Source: Sphagnum compactum | Lineage: Eukaryota | Direction of reading: 5' to 3' | DNA length: 64,000 nucleotides | NCBI GenBank assembly: GCA_965153455.1 | Contig: OZ234493.1 | Span: forward strand, 18,032,213-18,096,212 | Shown: positions 5,731 to 62,100 of the stretch, piece by piece | How the letters are laid out: every line of letters starts with the position of its first letter | Numbering within the stretch: position 1 is the stretch's first letter | The notes under the pieces: generated by a model | Told to the model about the DNA's origin: nothing | The model's input: only the letters and a program-made list of their open reading frames with translations | Databases searched by the model: none | Made by a program: the position numbers and the translations under genes

Positions 5731-6977
5731 TGGACATTAAGTTCAATGCTGTTTTGGAGGGTACATTATAACGGGATGAGCATTTCTTAAAACGGAACAC
5801 TTGTCATATAACAGTATGGTGGGTATGTCATTTCATTTTACAAAAATGGTCGCCCCTGTTTTTTAAATTTTGGATGTGCTTTACATTGGCAACACCCACG
5901 GAGCAGGGGCATAACTGAAATAAGTACACCACCTCAGGAGGGTCCTTATTTCAGTAATGACCCGTTTATTGGGTGTTCACCCTACACATGAAGTACGAGC
6001 AGAAAATTTCTAGTGTATCTGGAGGACACATTATTTGGCAGAATTCTCATTGGCAAGTGTGCATTTCAGTTTTTTTCCCCAGTCATAGCTGGTGGGTATG
6101 CTGCCATATGTGCTGAGTATCATAGGAAAAGAAATGAAAACTAATTTTCTGCCAGTGCTGTACATCAGAACGCCCTCAGAGCAAGGTCTTACCCCAAAGA
6201 ACACACAGTGGCCAAAGCCAGGGCAGGCCTATTTCAGGGAGAATACCTCACTTGGATGGCATTACCCCACTCTAACTTGTGATATTAAAGTTATTCCTAA
6301 AGTCAGGAAAATATGGTACTGGAACACCCCCCCTGTTTCACTATTCACAGGGGCACACCCTCCCATGCTGTGGCCACTCATCGCAAGGCCATGGGACCAA
6401 GCAAAGTATCTGTACGTGGTATAATTATGCCTTGACCAAACCAGCATCTATATTGGTACTAAGTTTTTAAAAAAACACTTTGTGTTTGTTTTTAATCTTA
6501 GAAATTGTGAGTGCAGTTCATTACTCCTCATTCATTAGACCAATGAATTCATTATTTTTTAATTAGTCTCAATTTACTTAAACTGGTGAATTCATTGAAA
6601 ATCTAGTGAAATCACTTGACATTAAAAACACCTTTTGTTGGAGCTAAATTCATCTTTTAGAGCAGCAGGTTCACAGGTGCTCTGAGTATATGACAATGGA
6701 ACACAATATTTCCCAAAACCAGGATTAGTTTTTTTTTTCCCAACCCCGCACTAAAACTGACACTGCAAATAATCAGTAACCAATAATAGCTACTAGCAAC
6801 CCTTGGACCAACCACCTGTCTAAGAGTGTATCCAACACTCAGCAGCAGGTATTGTCCTTTGCTGAGCCTTTTGCCTCCCTTGGTATTATCAGGGAAAATG
6901 TCCATGCCAAAGTCATTGTGCTGAGCCAAATTTTACTGTCCATGGCCATATACCCAGAACCTGTGGAGCTGCCCTTA

Positions 6978-7322
6978 GGCCCACTTTACACTAGGAGTGG
7001 AGGCGGATGTTCAACTCAAATCACGCATTCCTATTGGTGAAAAAGTTGAAATCAGCCCCAAGGGCTAAATTACACTAGGAGTCAAGGCTGAAATAGACAA
7101 AATCTTTTCAATCTGCCCCAAGTTATTAATAAATGCTGAACTTTATGGTATTGGCCTCAAGGCTGAAGAAAAGGATACCATCAAATTTGGGAACCTGATT
7201 TGCAACCCTTGTGGCCGATGTTGTAGCATTTATTGGTAACTTGGGGCCAGACAAAAAGTCCAAAATGCTCAAACTTGGCCCCAAAAGTTTTTTCAGCCCT
7301 GACTCCGAGTGTAAAGCAGGCC
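6978..7322. mobile_element. Tourist-like (PIF/Harbinger) MITE
   Basis: TIRs GGCCCACTTTACACTAGGAGT / reverse complement GGCCTGCTTTACACTCGGAGT. TTA TSD at 6975-6977 and 7323-7325. A second left-end copy lies inside, near 7062-7093. Confidence 0.8.
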
Positions 7323-8092
7323 TTAGACTAAATCAGGGTCTCTGTGTTCAAATTTAACATTTCTTTGATGCGTGTTGCAGTTATTATCAGAGAAAGGCCT
7401 CGTTCAAGAAGGTGAGTGTAGTAATGTAGATGCATGTTCAGCCTGGCCATTAATTACAGGTTTCCCCAATTCCTTCACAAACAACAGACTTGGTTTGTGG
7501 GCACCATAACACAAAGCAAGTCAGAAAACCAAAAATGAGGAAAAAGTTACTGGCTTTCACTAGGCTAATGCCTCAGATCTGGGATCCAACATGTCTGCAC
7601 TTTGGACCAGATGTCAATCGTGCTGATTGTGGTTCTCCACATAAGGAGTCAAAAGGGTCTTGCAGTAAAACACCTTTAAGCCCACTTTAGACCAGGGTCC
7701 AGGGTCCAATTTCCTAGGAACCAATTTGGACTCATGTGAAGTAAATTGAATCCTTGATTTGGACTCATGTGAAGCAAATTGAATCCTTGAGTTGGAGTGT
7801 ACCTGGGTCCCTAGCCTGATTCTTGGTTCTCCAAATCAGGAGCTCTCCTTTTAGCACTGTCTTTTGGTCTGAACCAATTGATTTTCCCTCAAAAACAGGT
7901 CCTATATTAGCCTCAATTTCCCACTTTTTGGTCTTGGACCCTCATCTGAAGGCCTTGGGACCAATTTAAAGCTTTTGACCAATAAGATTGCTTGAATTCA
8001 TCGCTCCCTAGACCTTCGTGTATAGTCACCCTTAGTTTCACAACATGTTTTTCCATAATTCATTTAGAGTGCACACATATATACCTTTGTAC

Positions 8093-8264
8093 CAGTATTT
8101 TCTTTTTCTTTTTTTTTCTCAAATTTTTAGTTTGTAAACTTTGTCCATTTTTTTCCATTTTTGAGCTTTTTTTTCTCGAATTCACACTATTGAAAGGAAA
8201 TTTCCCAATTTCTTCAAAAACATTTTGTAGCCACAGTGCGAAAATTCACCAAGAAAAATCACTG
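8093..8264. mobile_element. Short hAT-like MITE
   Basis: CAGTATTTT...AAAAATCACTG ends. Flanks CTTTGTAC / CTCTATAC match 6 of 8, consistent with a decayed 8-bp TSD. Confidence 0.45.
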
Positions 8265-9691: not shown

Positions 9692-12600
9692 ATGGAAAAT
9701 TCATATGGCCTCAAGCGAAAAGGAGTTGATCTTTCACAAGGGACACCAAAAAGAAAGAGAGATGTTGTGCAGATACCTGCTAGGATTGAGACACCTTTGG
9801 TCCCCACTGAAAATGCTCCTTCAAGCTCTGGATGGCACAGCAATGTGGTGCTTCTTCTTGACCTTATGATGAGCTTTCTTTGCACAGTTTTTTCTTGGGC
9901 TTTGCCAAGTTACATGTTGAAGTTTGATTTTTCTTTACTTTTTTTATTTTGTTTGGGTCTTGACAATTTTCCTTGACCCTCACAACCATGATAGCTTATT
10001 GTCCTCACAAAGCATCAGGAGAAGGAGGTCTAGTTCAGATTTGAACTCCCAACCAGCGGCTTCACAACCATACCCTTTAGTCACTAGGGTACCTGAATGT
10101 CCTCAATCATTTACAAGCTTCCTTGTCGTACATTTTCACTTTGCCTACTTTCCAGTTTGTTTGTTTAGACAAAAACAATAGGAAATGGAGTCATCATTAT
10201 AGCCTCTTACATTAGGCTAGCAACTCAGTTGCTATATAACAAGTAGAATTGGTGAAAGGGAAATTTGTCAATTGGCATTAACTAAGAATATATTGAACTT
10301 GTAAGGATTGGAGCTTAGATTATGAGTTAAGTTCAATGTGTAGTCTTAATCCAACAACCTAAGGCAAATTATTAAGATGCTCTTGAACATTCTTAATGGG
10401 TTTGTGTCCCAATTCCTTAGGAGTTGGAGGCCTTAGGGGCCCAAATGTTGGGGAAAATGTCATGAAATACAAAGGAACCAAACTAGATGGCTGAGTCAGT
10501 CAACCCAAACTTGAAAGAATCCAATTCTTAGCATTAACCTTTATTGATTGGCATATGTTCCACCTACAACGTAACAATATTTACTCATTGAACTATGTTT
10601 TGAAACTTTGAGGTCTAGGACACATGTGAATGATCTTCATTTGTTAGTCATGCAAGATAGATTTGGTATTCTCCAATTCATCTATTATTGTAATCTTGTT
10701 AAACTTAATCTTTTCAATTAATCATGGACTTTATCTAACTACTATAATTTGTATATTGCATTTTTCTAATTTAATGTATAGTCAAATAATTTTCAAGAGA
10801 TGTTTGAAGAATTGTGTTGACTCTTTTTCATTTTCTTTGCAGAAATATCTAGTGTGTGATTTAAATCCCACTTGCAATTCCAATAATCCAAACTTGACCG
10901 TCATTTTTTTCCATGGGATTGCTTTTGGCACAAATGATGAATGGAAGGAAACATGGACAACATGCCCCACCAACAATAGAGAAGAGTGCATATGTTGGCC
11001 AGAAAAGTGGCTACCCGAAGACTTGAACAACAATGTTCGAATTTTATCATTGTCTTATGATTCTAACATTGTGGCAGGTGTTCACAATGATGTGACTGAA
11101 ATTGGCAAAAACCTCATACAAAGTTTGGTTATAAATTGAAGGTGTGATAATCTCCTCTATTTATGGACACATTAATTACTTCTCCTTGTGTACATTAAGG
11201 ATAATTGTTTACATCTTTAGAATTTTTTAAATGTTTTGCACAAGTTAATTATTCATGCGTGCTAATATTGTGATACACACCAAGAAGTTTCCATTTATTT
11301 GAATTGTTAGATTAATGTAGAAAACATAAAATGGGGCTTAAATGCAAATGTCCTTATTTGAAGATAATAGCAAAGTATATGTTCATATTATAAGTTCATG
11401 GTACACCTAGTTTGGTTTTGATGGCAATTTTTAATTCGCATTTTTTGAATCTTTATCTTTGGTAATGCAATTGAATTAAATTAAATTAAATTAATACATG
11501 TGTATAAAATTTGCACCATTTCATCACAAAAAAATTATTTCAGAAAAAGGGCATATCTTTTTCTCTTTTTTTTATTAAATTTCAACGGTATTTTCAAGGT
11601 AACACATAGAAGGTGAGTTGTACATTGACAAAAGAATGTAAACACTTATATACTTGTACATAATAATTATTTTACCAAAACATGGTTGTCACATTTTTTA
11701 AGTAGATTGATGGAGTCAATAAATGATAAATGCAAAGCAAATCAATTATGAACTTATGATTTAGGTCATGTGTGAATTGGAAAATTGCCTCAAGTACAAT
11801 AGGATAAATTTGTACATGCTACTACAATGTTGATAATGGAATTTTGGTGCATTGTTGAATATTTTGTAGTTATCAATCCTTTTGGGATGGACCAGTGGCA
11901 TTAGTTGCTTATAGTTTTGGAGGCCTTATACTCAAAAGCTTGGTGGTTGAAGCTCGCAAACATGTAAATCAAAGGCCAAGAAATGATTTGGATGATGAAG
12001 TATACAAATGTTGTGAGACATTTTTGAACAATGTTAAAGGTGTAGTATTTTATGGTGTACCACATGCTGGTGGTACCCAAGATTTATCAAATTATTTCAC
12101 TTGGCAACATCAACAAATCAACACATTGAACAAGTATGCAATCCAATCTGGTATTTTAAAAAATTTAGAATCTTTCAACCCACAAATGGAATACCTTTCA
12201 ATGGATTTTAAAAATGCCGTTCATGAAGACCTCAACATTTATGCATTTGGCGAAGGATTACCACTCGATGATAATTGGGTAAGATTTTCATTTCACCACA
12301 TTGAAAATTATCCGACTAGGTTCATTAGTTGAACATTTTTTGTATTGTCAAAATTTGTGTGAGATCATGTACTCAATACTCCTAAATATATTAAGGTGGT
12401 GAATGGGTCATGTGTTTTATGAACTTTGTTTCATGAATTACTATCGATGGAAAGGAAATTTGATTGATTTGAAACAACAAGAAATCGGTTTTAAATTTTC
12501 CCTTCATCAAACCAATTCCATATAAATATTTGTGAGGAAAACCATAACATCATTAAAACATGTAAGATTAATGAAATTAATATTTCATTTTTATTCAAAC

Positions 12601-15600
12601 ATCAATAGTTATCAAGCTATAGTTTCCTCCACCATTTGAAAGTATTTTACTTATAAGGTGAAGCATAAGAAAACAAGCAAATCAATGAGCTCCATTAATT
12701 TAATCTTTTGCATATGCAGGGAATTTTAGTGCCATTTGCCTCGGCTATTTAGTTGTCAAACAACAACCATTACAAAATTGAGGATGCTAATCACTTCACA
12801 ATTTGCAAGCCACCAAACAAAGATCATCCAAGCTATTCTTTATTGTTAAAATGTTTGAAAATATGTATGGAGGTAAAAACATCAAATCTAAGTTTTTTGA
12901 TTTCATATATGTTCATATAATTTGATACACATTAGGTCATAGCATTCTTGATGTGTATTGCATGTGCAATGTCATATATATTGGTTATCAAATAAGAAAA
13001 AAACATATAAATGACCTATATTTTGTGAATTTTGACAGAAAAATATATTGCTTCCACCTTTGCCATGTCATGAAGTGGCATTGGTTGACAAAGCAAAAGA
13101 CATAAACATCTTGTTACAAAAGGAATCTATTGTTGGTTTGGTCGGAATGGGTGGGATTGGGAAGACCACTTTGTGCAAAAAATTCTATCATTTGTTCCAC
13201 AACGAATATGACAAATCTAGTTTTTTGGAGGATGTGAAATCAAAGGACGATATCAATGATGTCATAAAACGACTCCTATGTGATTTGTGTGGCCAAAGGT
13301 TATGCAAGGATGAAAATGTGAATCAAAAAGACCTTGACCAAATTAGGCAATGTATGATATCGAAGAAAGTGTTAGTGGTGGTGGATGATGTTGGTAATGG
13401 GAAAGACCTTACATCCTTGCAACTTGTCATTAATAAATGTGCCAAGAATACAACTTCTAAAAGCAAAGTACTTGTGAATTGTCGAAATTGGCAAAATCTG
13501 AAATCTCATGTAAATGAAGATGGAAAGGTCGTCATGAAATCTTTGGAGGAAGAGCACGCAAGGGAACTTTTTATGTTCCATGCATTCAGTAATGCAAATC
13601 ATGTTCCAACAAAGGATTTCAAAGATATATGTATGAAAATTATAGAAGCTTGTGGGGGGCTCCCTTTAAGTCTTAAAATATTGGGTTCTTTTTTGTGCGA
13701 TACTAAAGAATTAGAAATCTGGGAAGGTGCATTGAACAAATTGAAAAGTGGGCAAAGTTTCACCGGGGGCAATGATAATGAAGAACTTTGGAGTAAATTG
13801 AAAATTTCTTATGACTACTTGGATAAGCAACATCAAAACATGTTTTTGGATATTGCTTGTTTTTTTCATGGTTTGAAAATAAGTACAATTTGTCGAACGT
13901 GGAGTGGAAATTATTTACACTCAAAATTTGAATTACGAAATTTACAACATAGATCTTTGATCCAATGGGCAGAAGGTGGAATCTTGTACATACATGAACA
14001 ATTACATGGGTCAAAATATTACAATGGAACTTCCAATTATGAATCGTTTTATATGGAAATCAAATAAACCAAATTTTTTTTTACAAAAGGATGAGGTTGT
14101 CACCATACTATTTCAATCTTTTAATTTTACTTTGATTTTTTTAATTTATTTTTTACTATGTCCAAAATAAAATGTTTTACCTTTTAGTTTTGATTTTATA
14201 AATACATTTTTTTCTAAAAAAACATTGGCACTAGGATGAAATGTTATTTTATATTGATAATCCTTTTGTTTTCATCTCATGTGATAGGTGGTGGAAAATC
14301 TAGAAGGCATTTCATTAAAACAATGTGACAATTTGCCTACATTGTCCCAAATTGGCTCAAAGGGATTTCACAAACTTAGGTTGGTTGACCTAACAGAAGC
14401 CTCCCCAACTATTGTGAATTTTTTCATCCAAGGGCGAAAGTTGAATAATGTTAAATGGTTGTGCTTCAAGAAATGCATGATTCAAACGTTGCCAAGTAAT
14501 TTGTTTTATTGTTTACAATTAAAAGTACTTGATTTGACAAAATGCCTAAATTTAGAAAAAATACCTTCATATATTGGCCAATTGAATGCACTCCAAGAGC
14601 TTGATTTAAATGGGTGTTCCAAGTTGAAAGAACTACCTTCATCTATTGGCCAATTGAATGCATTCCAAGAGCTCGATTTGAATGGGTGTTCCAACTTGAA
14701 AGAACTACCTTCATCTATTGGCCAACTGAATGCACTCCAAAAGCTTAATTTGAATTGGTGTTCCAACTTGAAAGAACTACCTTCATCTATTAGCCAATTG
14801 AATGCACTCCAAGAGCTTGTTTTGAGTGGGTCTTCCAACTTGAGAAAACTACCTTCATCTATTGGCCAATTGAATGCACTCCAAGAACTTCATTTGAGTG
14901 AATGTTCCAACTTGAGAGAACTACCTTCATCTATTGGCCAATTGAATGCACTCCAAATGCTTAATTTATATTGGTGTTCCAACTTGAAAGAACTACCTTC
15001 ATCTATTGGCCAATTGAATGCACTCCAAAAGCTTCATTTGGATTTGTGTCACAAGTTGAGAGAACTACCTTCATCTATTAGCGAATTGAATGCACTCCAA
15101 AAACTTGATTTGAATGGGTGTTCCAACTTGAAAGAACTACCTTCATCTATTGGCCAATTGAATGCACTCCAAGAGCTTAATTTGAACGGGTGTTGCAACT
15201 TGCAAGAATTACCTTCATCTATTGGCCAATTGAATGCACTCCAAAAGCTTAATTTGAATGGGTGTTACAACTTGAAAGAACTACCTTCATCTATTGGCCA
15301 ATTAAATGCACTCCAAAAGCTTAGTTTGAGTGCGTGTTTCAACTGGAAAAAACTACCTTCATCTATTGGCCAATTGAATGCACTCCAAGAACTCGATTTG
15401 AATGGGTGTTCCAACTTGAAAGAACTACCTTCATCTATTGGCCAATTGAATGCACTCCAAGAGCTCGATTTGAGTTTATGTTCCAACTTGAAAGAACTAC
15501 CTTCATCTATTGGCCAATTGAATGCACTCCAAAAGCTTAATTTGAATTGGTGTTCCAACTTGAAAGAACTACCTTCATCTATTGGCCAATTGAATGCACT

Positions 15601-16611
15601 CCAAGAGCTTGGTTTGAGTGGGTGTTCCAACTTGAAAGAACTACCTTCATTTATTGGCCAATTGAATGCACTCCAAAAGCTTGGTTTGAATGATTCGTCT
15701 AACTTGGAAGAACTACCTTCATCTATTGGGCACTTAAATGCATTCCAAAAGCTTAATTTGAATGGGTGTTACAACTTGAAAGAATTACCTTCATCTATTG
15801 GCCAATTGAATGCACTCCAAGAGCTTGATTTGAATAAGTGTTCCAACTTGAAAGAACTACCTTATCAATTGGTCAATTGAATGCACTCCAAAAGCTTAAT
15901 TTGAATGGGTGTTGCAACTTGAAAGAACTACCTTCATCTATTGGCCAATTGAATGCACTCCGAAAGCTTGGTTTGAGTGAATGTTCCAACTTGAGACAAC
16001 TACCTTCATCTATTGGCCAATTGAATGCACTCCAAGAGCTTGTTTTGAGTGGGTGTTCCAACTTGAAAGAAGTACCTTCATCTATTGGCCAATTGAATGC
16101 ACTCCAAAAGCTTGGTTTAAGTGACTGTTCTAACTTGAAAGAACTACCTTCATCAATTGGTCAATTGAATGCACTCCAAAAGCTTAATTTGAATGGGTGT
16201 TGCAACTTGAAAGAACTACCTTCATCTATTGGCCAATTGAATGAACTCCAAGAGCTTGATTTGAGTTTATGTTCCAATTTGAGAGAACTACCTTCATCTA
16301 TTGGCCAATTGAATGCACTCCAAAAGCTTAATTTGAATTGGTGTTCCAACTTGAAAGAACTACCTTCATCTATGGGCCAATTGAATGCACTCCAAAAGCT
16401 TAATTTGAACGGGTGTTGCAACTTGCAAGAATTACCTTCATCTATTGGCCAATTGAATGCACTCCAAAAGCTTAATTTGAATGGGTGTTACAATTTGCAA
16501 GAATTACCTTCATCTATTGGCCAATTGAATGCATTCCAAGAGCTTGTTTTGAGTGGGTCTTCCAACTTGAGAGAACTACCTTCATTTATTGGCCAATTGA
16601 ATACACTCTAG
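9692..16611 (+). pseudogene. Alpha/beta-hydrolase-NB-ARC-LRR immune receptor (Hyd-NLR), disrupted
   Basis: Phase-consistent GT-AG exons 9692-9847, 10843-11141, 11870-12278, 12720-12872, 13039-14095 and 14288-16611. Hydrolase motifs VIFFHG, WPEKWLPEDL, RILSLSYDS, AYSFGG, GVPHAG and DANHFTICKP. NB-ARC motifs GMGGIGKT, VLVVVDDV, CGGLPL, FLDIACFF and MHD-like IHE. Lesions: TGA 11137-11139, TAG 12750-12752, frameshift ~14005, 1-nt deletion ~15863, TAG 16609-16611. Confidence 0.92.
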
Positions 16612-17185
16612 GCTTTTATTTATAAGACTTCTTCAACTTGAAAGCATCTTGAGAAAAATGCATTCATCTATGGGCAAATTGAATGCACTCAAAGTGCTTC
16701 ATTTGTCGAGGCATTCCAACTTGAAATAACTATTTTCATCTATTGGCCAATTGAATACATTTGAAAAAGCTTCATTTGTCAAAGCAATCCAACTTGAAAC
16801 AACTACTTTCATCTACTAGCCAATTGAGTACAATCCAAAAGCTTCATTTGTCAAGGTGTTCCAACTTGAAATAATTATTTTCATCCACTAGCTAATTGCG
16901 TACATTCTAAAAGCTTCATTTGTCAAAATGTTCCAACTTGAAAAAAAAAAATTTCATCTATTGGTCATTGAGTGCACTTGAAAATCTTGATTTGTGTGAA
17001 TGCTACAATTTGCAGGAATTACTTACATGTACATTGACCAATTAAATGCACTCCAAAAGTTTTAATTCTGAGAATGGACGAGGTTGCAGGAATTACTTAT
17101 GTTTATTGGCCAATTTAATGCATTCAAGGAACTTAATTTGTTAAAGCGTTTCAAGTTGAGAGAATCACCTTCATCTATTGCCAAC
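14561..17185 (+). repeat. 72-bp tandem LRR-coding array: 28 complete near-identical units, a partial unit and ~8 degenerate units
   Basis: Unit LPSSIGQLNALQ[EK]LxLxxCxNL[KRQ]E. The DNA scaffold CTACCTTCATCTATTGGCCAATTGAATGCACTCCAA is almost invariant. Decayed copies continue past the stop at 16611. Confidence 0.95.
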
Positions 17186-52918: not shown

Positions 52919-53419
52919 AAATTCTCTTTGTTCACATGAGCTAGGTTTCGACAAACTCTACCAAGCCCAACAAGACATTTATAGCCATTGAAAACACACC
53001 ACATGGCACACCAGATCTTGGCTTTAGTTCTTTGGCTCCTGCAAGCTTTCTTCTTCCCGCCACATTTTTCGCATTCACATTTTGTGGCTTCCCAAAATTC
53101 TCTCTCTGTTCACATGACCTGGGTTTGGACAAACTGTAGGCACCTGCCTGGACACATACAGCCATTGAAAGCGCACCACATGGCATAAGAGATCTTGGCC
53201 TTTGTTCTTTGGCTCTGCAGCTTTCTTCTTCAAGCCACATTTTTCATGTTCACATCATGTAACTTCCCAAAATTCTCTCTCTGTTCACATAAGCTGGGTT
53301 TAGACAAACTGTAGCAAGCCCAAAAGGACACTTAAAGCCATTGAAAACACGCCACATGGCACGCAATATCTTGGCCCTTTTGTTCTTTGGCTCCTGCAGG
53401 CTTTCTTCTTCCCGCCACA
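52919..53419 (+). repeat. ~176-bp tandem triplication in the MCM2 proximal promoter
   Basis: Units start at ~52919, 53095 and 53270 (AAATTCTCT..GTTCACAT..GACAAACT..GCCATTGAAA..CCACATGGCA..TCTTGGC..CTTTCTTCTTC). A decayed copy lies near 51620-51710. Confidence 0.9.
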
Positions 53420-61596: not shown

Positions 61597-62100
61597 GTAA
61601 CAGAAGGACCGCCGCGGCCCTAACAGAGGGCGGTATAAGAGGCGATTCTGTTTACAGCCCGGAGCGTTCCGGACTATGTTGTAACAGAAGGCGGTAAGAG
61701 GCGATTCTGTTACGGCCCTGATCCTTGGTATATGATGTAACACAAGGCCGTAAGGGGTGAATCTGTTGCGGCGCCAACCCTTGGCCTATGCTGTGTAACA
61801 CAAGGCGCTAAGACGCAAATCTGTTACGGCTCTTTTTATTGCAGCCTTGGCAATAACAGGAGAATTTGTTACAGCCCCGGCCCTTGAAGCCTAGGCCATG
61901 ACAGAAGGCGGTAAAAGGCAAATCTGCTACGGCCTCGGAACTTGCAGCCTATGCTGTAACAGAAGGCGGTAAGAGTCGAATCTGTTACGGCCGCGGCCCT
62001 CACAGCCTATGCTGTAACAGAAGGCGGCATAAGGCGAATTTGTTACGGGCGCGGCCCTTGCAGCCTATATATATTCTGTAACAGAATGCGGTAAGAGTGG
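61597..62100 (+). repeat. ~58-bp tandem array (~9-10 units), each with an internal inverted repeat GTAACAGA-N17-TCTGTTAC
   Basis: Units start at ~61621, 61681, 61737, 61795, 61853, 61898, 61956, 62014 and 62078. Confidence 0.9.

Follow-up and report, generated by a model that had tools for sequence, protein, structure and literature searches.

Gene carrying the array and its lesions

We analysed a 64,000-nucleotide stretch of the Sphagnum compactum genome (contig OZ234493.1, positions 18,032,213 to 18,096,212; hereafter the window), in which a gene of the nucleotide-binding leucine-rich repeat receptor (NLR) type carries a long tandem array of leucine-rich repeat (LRR) units. Tandem Repeats Finder located the 72-bp array at 14555-17059, and the array forms the last exon (14288-16611) of a six-exon gene on the + strand (Table 1). 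The genome holds 57 further NB-ARC copies at 73-89% identity; with three more loci they made up our set of 60 paralogs, or 61 loci with the window. Homology to 53 of the 60 paralogs begins near position 9700, with a GT donor after the first coding exon. The modal length of exon 2, 299 nt, was found in 54 of 61 loci, and the splice joining 12278 to 12720 was seen in RNA contigs of family members. The introns at the hydrolase/NB border (12873-13038) and the NB/LRR border (14096-14287) both fall between codons (phase 0).

The initial annotation had taken this gene for a moss hydrolase-type NLR, and the DUF676, NB-ARC and LRR matches agreed with that assignment. Pfam searches found the NB-ARC domain followed by LRRs. 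For the hydrolase, the DUF676 serine esterase profile matched the public gene model of the locus, P0001, with E=4.4e-4 and 20.2 bits, 0.1 bit below the cut-off of 20.3, and matched the homolog P0038 with E=1.4e-5 and 25.1 bits; a serine elbow-like motif and a histidine motif of alpha/beta-hydrolases were both present at the window locus. Single hydrolase exons gave weak profile scores on their own, and a PDB sequence search with the first hydrolase exon as query returned no significant match. The NB-ARC domain was 100% identical to a protein whose source labels it Sphagnum compactum; among the 54 matches that followed, 53 were 76-88% identical and nearly all came from six Sphagnum species, and the best matches outside Sphagnum were TIR-NLRs and Ceratodon proteins. 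On these matches, the window gene is a Sphagnum hydrolase–NB-ARC–LRR gene.

The frame through the NB-ARC and LRR regions was not intact, as four lesions, overlooked in the initial annotation, interrupt the assembled gene. Two are premature stops and one is a 1-bp deletion within the array (Table 1). The remaining lesion (lesion 3), a 5-bp deletion after about 14003 that is absent from 12 of 12 paralogs, shifts the frame just beyond the IHE (MHD-equivalent) motif, and P0001 ends there at 601 aa, with no LRRs. At position 11138, within lesion 1, three of four public runs carried C instead of G in all covering contig depth, and the fourth run lacked cover there. However, the best of the 24 public runs listed held 0.33 of the words of the locus, and the four runs over 10800-14550 yielded only short pieces of paralogs; the lesions therefore rest on the assembly, and the reads provide no check on the lesions or on expression of the window copy. 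Read from the assembly, the window copy is a pseudogene, predicted to be unable to make a receptor. None of its 28 units contains a stop, compared with 10% of units family-wide (P=0.05), a hint that the gene lost function recently, and its private changes (8 nonsynonymous, 4 synonymous) are too few to date its death.

Table 1. Features of the array-bearing gene in the window.
Feature	Position	Strand	Evidence or remark
Candidate first coding exon, 52 aa	9692-9847	+	Translation matches N-termini of annotated Sphagnum homologs, e.g. P0006, P0014
Exon 2, first part of alpha/beta-hydrolase domain	10843-11141	+	AG/GT boundaries conserved against 12 paralogs
Premature stop TGA (lesion 1)	11137-11139	+	Ser codon in 12/12 aligned paralogs
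Exon 3, hydrolase domain, nucleophile-elbow-like motif AYSFGG	11870-12278	+	DUF676 match
Exon 4, end of hydrolase domain, His motif DANHxTICKP	12720-12872	+	Paralog alignment, homolog sequences
Premature stop TAG (lesion 2)	12750-12752	+	Sense codon in 12/12 aligned paralogs (Gln 11, Arg 1)
Exon 5, NB-ARC and winged-helix domain	13039-14095	+	Pfam: NB-ARC E=5.2e-33, WHD_ROQ1 E=2.9e-8
Exon 6 start, divergent LRR leader upstream of array	14288-14563	+	
LRR array, 28 units of 72 bp	14564-16578	+	In-register unit alignment
Unit 19, 71 bp, 1-bp deletion near 15864 (lesion 4)	15860-15930	+	Otherwise identical to unit 23
Partial unit 29; TAG at 16609-16611 ends the shifted-frame open reading frame	16579-16611	+	
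Decayed LRR units past the stop, to about 17170	16612-17170	+	Tail includes an 82-bp unit

Structure and recurrences of the array

Read in register from 14564, the array held 28 units, the number originally reported; 27 were 72 bp long and unit 19 was 71 bp. Pairwise identity between units averaged 88.6% in nucleotides (range 79-100%) and 78% in amino acids; all unit statistics exclude units with indels or with less than 52/72 identity. Amino acid variability peaked at unit codons 12, 14, 16, 17, 19 and 22, with entropies of 1.2-2.2 bits versus 0-0.6 bits elsewhere. The 82-bp unit of the decayed tail was present in 23 of 60 paralogs too.

The units had been described as shuffled cassettes whose variants recur in new orders. 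Every recurrent pair that had been named was present: units 13/24 differed at 4 nucleotides, 14/25 at 0, 9/26 at 2, 10/27 at 3 and 4/28 at 3, and units 19/23 differed by the 1-bp gap alone. Segments also recurred beyond chance, with six pairs of identical variable segments versus 0.5 expected under independent columns (p=0.003, 27 gap-free units), and a like excess was found in 42 of 51 arrays tested. The part of the description that did not stand concerned consecutive two-unit blocks, which showed no excess over shuffled unit orders at seven thresholds (p=0.047 to 1.0). The notion of discrete cassettes was not supported either: four-gamete violations at 15 codon pairs within the variable segment indicate that this segment is not an indivisible cassette, and recombination or recurrent mutation also acts inside it.

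An origin of the unit order by one or two block duplications, which would have refuted the reading of the initial annotation, was rejected. Recurrences lay at scattered offsets of 4, 10, 11, 17, 22 and 24 units, exact tracts did not exceed 97 nt (the longest exact repeats were 97, 92 and 90 nt), the diagonal test was at chance, and neighbouring units were no more alike than distant ones.

A family of array-bearing genes

All 60 paralogs had a 72-bp array inside an exon; unit counts ran from 8 to at least 69, with a median of 39.5, and the window array, with 34 anchors, is ordinary for the family. The survey covered loci with an NB-ARC domain, and L044, L075, L084, L086, L087 and L088 were excluded from 'core' counts. 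Of the 60 paralogs, 33 carried a lesion upstream of the array, and another 24 were free of such lesions and had 15 or more open units. The ratio of nonsynonymous to synonymous private changes (omega) was 0.96 in 29 lesioned loci versus 0.64 in 25 unlesioned loci.

Across the paralogs (L031-L090), most frames end at a nonsense codon or frameshift within the array, often where a Gln codon has become a stop, and decayed units without a conserved cap lie past the stop; sensor length thus seems to be set by the first stop in the array. L058 (L058:4980-10000; G000:C1:36.94 Mb) was free of lesions upstream of its array, and 69 or more of its units stay in frame, with no stop before the sequence analysed for this locus ends. 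L054 (G000:C1:18010680-18020679), a close paralog whose array counts 62 units, lies about 12-21 kb before the window start.

We also considered whether the array or its lesions could be assembly artefacts. No public run holds the locus, and the 1-bp deletion sits within a repeat. Against this, exact repeats extend to 97 nt at most and the mean difference between units is 11%; such arrays are also found at 60 loci in this genome and in five other species that were assembled independently. Of the lesions, two arose by substitution to a stop, and the 5-bp deletion does not lie in a homopolymer. An artefact is therefore very improbable.

Amino acid variation on the predicted exposed face

The variation had been assigned to a presumed exposed beta-strand, with an excess of nonsynonymous change expected there, and both points found support. 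An AlphaFold model of the leader and nine units (predicted local distance difference test score 94.9) contained one strand and one helix per unit, with the predicted strand at unit codons 12-14. In LRR proteins, the x positions flanking the strand form the concave binding face. A Foldseek search returned generic LRR solenoids.

In the window array, the nonsynonymous rate (dN) was 0.455 at codons 12, 14, 16, 17 and 19, compared with a synonymous rate (dS) of 0.11 across all codons. The ratio of exposed dN to array dS was 3.9 (bootstrap 2.9-6.0), and that of the scaffold was 0.37 (0.21-0.64). The pattern held across the family: the exposed ratio exceeded 1 in every one of 58 arrays, and the scaffold ratio stayed under 1 in 55 of them. 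In four other Sphagnum species (333 units), these positions again varied most. These results show that the strand and turn positions retain amino acid diversity and that the scaffold is under purifying selection.

Turnover of units within genes

Close paralogs served as a time series for array change (REARRANGEMENT). At 0.7% intron divergence, 21 of 24 units were collinear, and at 1.3-1.5% about half were (20/40 in one pair; 25 in a pair of 61 versus 48 units). Unit numbers changed too: close pairs had 61 versus 48 units at 1.5% intron divergence, 66 versus 41 at 2.2%, and 12 versus 28 at 2.3%, the last pair with zero collinear units. Between the window and its closest relative, L067 (7.6%), collinearity of coding units was not above chance. 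By position in eight close pairs, collinear units numbered 18/32 among the first four, 75/229 in the middle and 16/48 among the last six; since the 5' end alone stands out, an edge effect at both array ends was rejected.

Variants have also spread through single arrays and clades. Among the 188 units of four sister loci, 126 carry a silent codon-8 change that 54 of 61 loci lack altogether; two other sister loci have a silent codon-5 change in 55 of their 78 units, and in L058 a codon-2 change marks 66 of 69 units. This last change gives Pro, which is also the consensus in S. fallax P0053; L058 and P0053 are possibly orthologous. Deeper Sphagnum clades each have their own unit consensus. For 835 of 2077 paralog units, and for 12 of 27 units of the window array, the nearest unit was found solely in the same locus, versus a pool share of 2%. 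The reordering between close paralogs, together with the clade-specific sweeps, demonstrates concerted evolution within genes, in keeping with the unequal crossover or conversion among LRR units that had been proposed, and exchange tracts are about one unit long.

Scaffold constancy and exchange between loci

The scaffold had been thought specially invariant at synonymous sites. The fourfold-site difference was 0.115 between paralogous NB and hydrolase exons and 0.092 between units within an array. At seven fourfold scaffold sites, deviation from the family consensus was 0.045 versus 0.068 (0.018-0.150) at base-matched NB and hydrolase sites (P=0.31), so that anomalously frozen silent sites were rejected, and the frozen look of the scaffold results largely from the family's youth.

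The suggested sharing of identical modules between loci found little support. None of the 28 window units recurred exactly among about 2070 units of other loci. Exactly shared units between loci numbered 37, of which 31 join loci less than 5% apart, as common descent explains, and six connect loci 9-16% apart in introns. Identical 72-bp units in L078/L090, L047/L070 and L038/L060, loci 10-16% apart in introns, differ from the family consensus at 6, 18 and 4 positions, respectively, and are the strongest candidates for conversion across loci. For 22 loci, trees built from the 5' part were compared with trees built from the 3' tail. The clades were largely shared, and both trees placed the window gene with L067 and L054; L046 formed a long branch, and L037/L039 changed place along a long branch of the tail tree. 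No clear case of a crossover joining two loci within the array appeared among the 22 loci.

These data bear on the possibility that the roughly 60 hydrolase-NLR genes form a het-e-like generator with a shared pool, in which units would cross loci occasionally, mitotic reshuffling would be frequent enough to make clonal mats receptor mosaics, and length would be tuned by the first nonsense codon in uncapped arrays of up to 70+ units. The rapid reordering of near-identical paralogs fits such a generator, as do a scaffold consensus that is nearly the same in more than 50 loci, with a net silent divergence of 0.0095, and the six shared units linking distant loci, one of them with six consensus differences. 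Fungi offer a precedent in which intragenic exchange is accompanied by occasional intergenic exchange, as far as the cited passages go (PMC2873952, PMC13449251). However, the absence of exact window units from other loci, the broad concordance of the trees, the common descent of most shared units and the ordinary scaffold constancy all run against it, and we regard it as unlikely. Some inter-locus exchange may occur, as the six units linking distant loci and the low net unit divergence would allow, but it is not needed to explain the data.

Among the NB-ARC paralogs surveyed, a programmed system was rejected as well. Variable lymphocyte receptor (VLR)-like somatic systems have separate donor cassettes and an incomplete germline gene that is assembled somatically; here, 60 of 60 NB-ARC paralogs carry their own in-exon array, and no window unit occurs exactly elsewhere among them.

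Proposed mechanism

With a probability of about 0.76, we read the window gene as a recently disabled copy within a large and young family of Sphagnum hydrolase–NB-ARC–LRR receptors that evolves by intragenic unit turnover and diversifying selection. The predicted sensor is a single exon of tandem single-LRR units. As the close paralogs show, units within a gene are gained by duplication, lost, or overwritten over roughly one unit length at a time, fast enough that number and order change between genes a few percent apart, and silent and scaffold variants spread through single arrays. The likely engine is homologous recombination of misaligned 72-bp units, by unequal crossover and short-tract conversion, and no dedicated machinery would be needed. 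Because about three quarters of a unit is near-identical, exchanges would mostly resolve there, and the variable segment would travel as an apparent cassette. By analogy with other NLRs, the concave LRR face may bind pathogen ligands or control autoinhibition, the NB-ARC domain may switch on, and the hydrolase domain may signal. Diversifying selection combined with birth-and-death turnover would leave many dead copies, the window copy among them.

Several observations weigh against this reading. Within the exposed codons, dS itself is raised (0.24 versus 0.09), and same-codon dN/dS is just 1.2-1.9. Counted as distinct alleles in the window array, the exposed codons have 23 nonsynonymous and 6 synonymous variants versus 15 and 10 at other codons (p=0.15), and pairwise dN/dS under recombination is no rigorous selection test. 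In a pairwise homoplasy index (PHI)-type test on the window array, compatibility did not decay with distance, a result that is uninformative under homoplasy; from this array alone, recurrent mutation is thus inseparable from exchange within units. Finally, the low net silent unit divergence between loci, compared with 0.115 in the NB and hydrolase exons, implies that homogenisation is slow relative to reordering.

The first two of these observations would also suit neutral repeat instability, in which a young, minisatellite-like unit varies at unconstrained or mutable exposed sites and the arrays mostly decay with no role in recognition. The upstream lesions in 33 paralogs, the stops in 10% of family units and the frames ending at nonsense codons within uncapped arrays fit this explanation too. 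However, relaxation predicts dN close to dS, and in nearly all arrays the exposed dN was roughly fourfold the array dS. At codons 14 (0.3-1.3%) and 17 (4.6%), third positions deviate little, although more than half of the units depart from the commonest codon there. General hypermutation is unlikely, since these third positions do not exceed scaffold sites in their variation, though those of codons 15, 16, 19 and 20 are raised. The 24 paralogs with open arrays and no upstream lesion, and the maintenance of the design in six Sphagnum species, also argue against neutral decay, and we consider neutral instability improbable, more so than the shared-pool generator.

Other features of the window

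Outside the gene, an exon on the + strand at 55171-55698 matches the MCM N-terminal domain (Pfam E=1.1e-10), as part of an MCM helicase gene. A G+C-rich tandem repeat of about 58 bp, in 7-8 copies, lies at 61636-62068, upstream of a C+T-rich stretch, and a 175-bp tandem repeat with 2.8 copies and 80% matches lies at 52919-53419. The sequence at 6500-8100 recurs upstream of two to four paralogous loci and is probably a dispersed repeat or mobile element.

Comparison with known systems

The comparisons below follow the cited passages of each source. Fungal NLRs with high internal conservation (HIC) have near-identical sensor repeats with few hypervariable positions and are rearranged mainly within genes (PMC2873952), and a 2026 survey describes HIC-type NLRs in plants too (PMC13449251). 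The Sphagnum arrays show the hallmarks of this type: near-identical repeats (79-100% in the window array, compared with 80-100% for the type), a few hypervariable positions with a signal of diversifying selection that is less marked against same-codon dS or in allele counts, and concerted evolution within genes. Like het-e, het-d and het-r (HNWD) of Podospora, the family combines a STAND NTPase with 80-100% identical repeats, few hypervariable positions and many pseudogenes, and repeats are gained, lost and shuffled mainly within genes. Unlike the WD40 and NACHT domains of Podospora, Sphagnum has a 24-aa LRR, NB-ARC and a hydrolase head, and its arrays grow to 69 units or more. In Podospora, repeats have been demonstrated to be polymorphic among alleles, to be exchanged between genes and to affect specificity, whereas the S. 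compactum data come from one assembly.

Plant NLRs offer parallels too, and the contrast drawn in the initial annotation with typically divergent angiosperm LRRs was overstated. Rice Xa1/Xo1 (93 aa) and flax L/M (~150 aa) have near-perfect LRR repeats (PMC7004385), and in melon Vat/Pm-w (65 aa) unequal crossover was proposed and repeat number tracks specificity (PMC10807702). All share with Sphagnum near-identical LRR repeats of variable number in a plant NLR. The angiosperm units, however, span several LRRs at single loci, with one to seven copies in Vat and five or so in Xa1. The Sphagnum unit, by contrast, is one LRR, repeated between 8 and at least 69 times in a family of some 60 dispersed genes.

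Hydrolase-NLRs have been described from liverworts and Sphagnum, as HNL (Xue et al. 2012, PMC3352924) and as Hyd-NLR, with Sphagnum members named (Chia et al. 2024, PMC11218826). The window gene shares with these bryophyte genes the order of alpha/beta-hydrolase, NB-ARC and LRR and the phase-0 introns at the hydrolase/NB and NB/LRR borders. It differs from them in being disabled, and homogenised LRR arrays do not feature in the passages cited. Studies of brown algal ROCO and NB-ARC genes reportedly invoke exon shuffling. Young arrays of single-repeat LRR modules rearranged by recombination link Sphagnum to these and to Tetrahymena LRR genes with 90-bp exons, in which each repeat is an exon (PMC6564038); in Sphagnum, by contrast, the array lies wholly in one exon.

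We found no paper on these Sphagnum arrays in open-access and bioRxiv full text. The class of mechanism is already known from fungi, rice, flax and melon, and it is the family, not the dead window copy, that is of interest. As a plant example of NLR evolution by repeat shuffling, it seems unusually large, and its single-LRR units and dozens of paralogs of graded age open a direct way to measure how fast units turn over and how selection acts on the LRR face.

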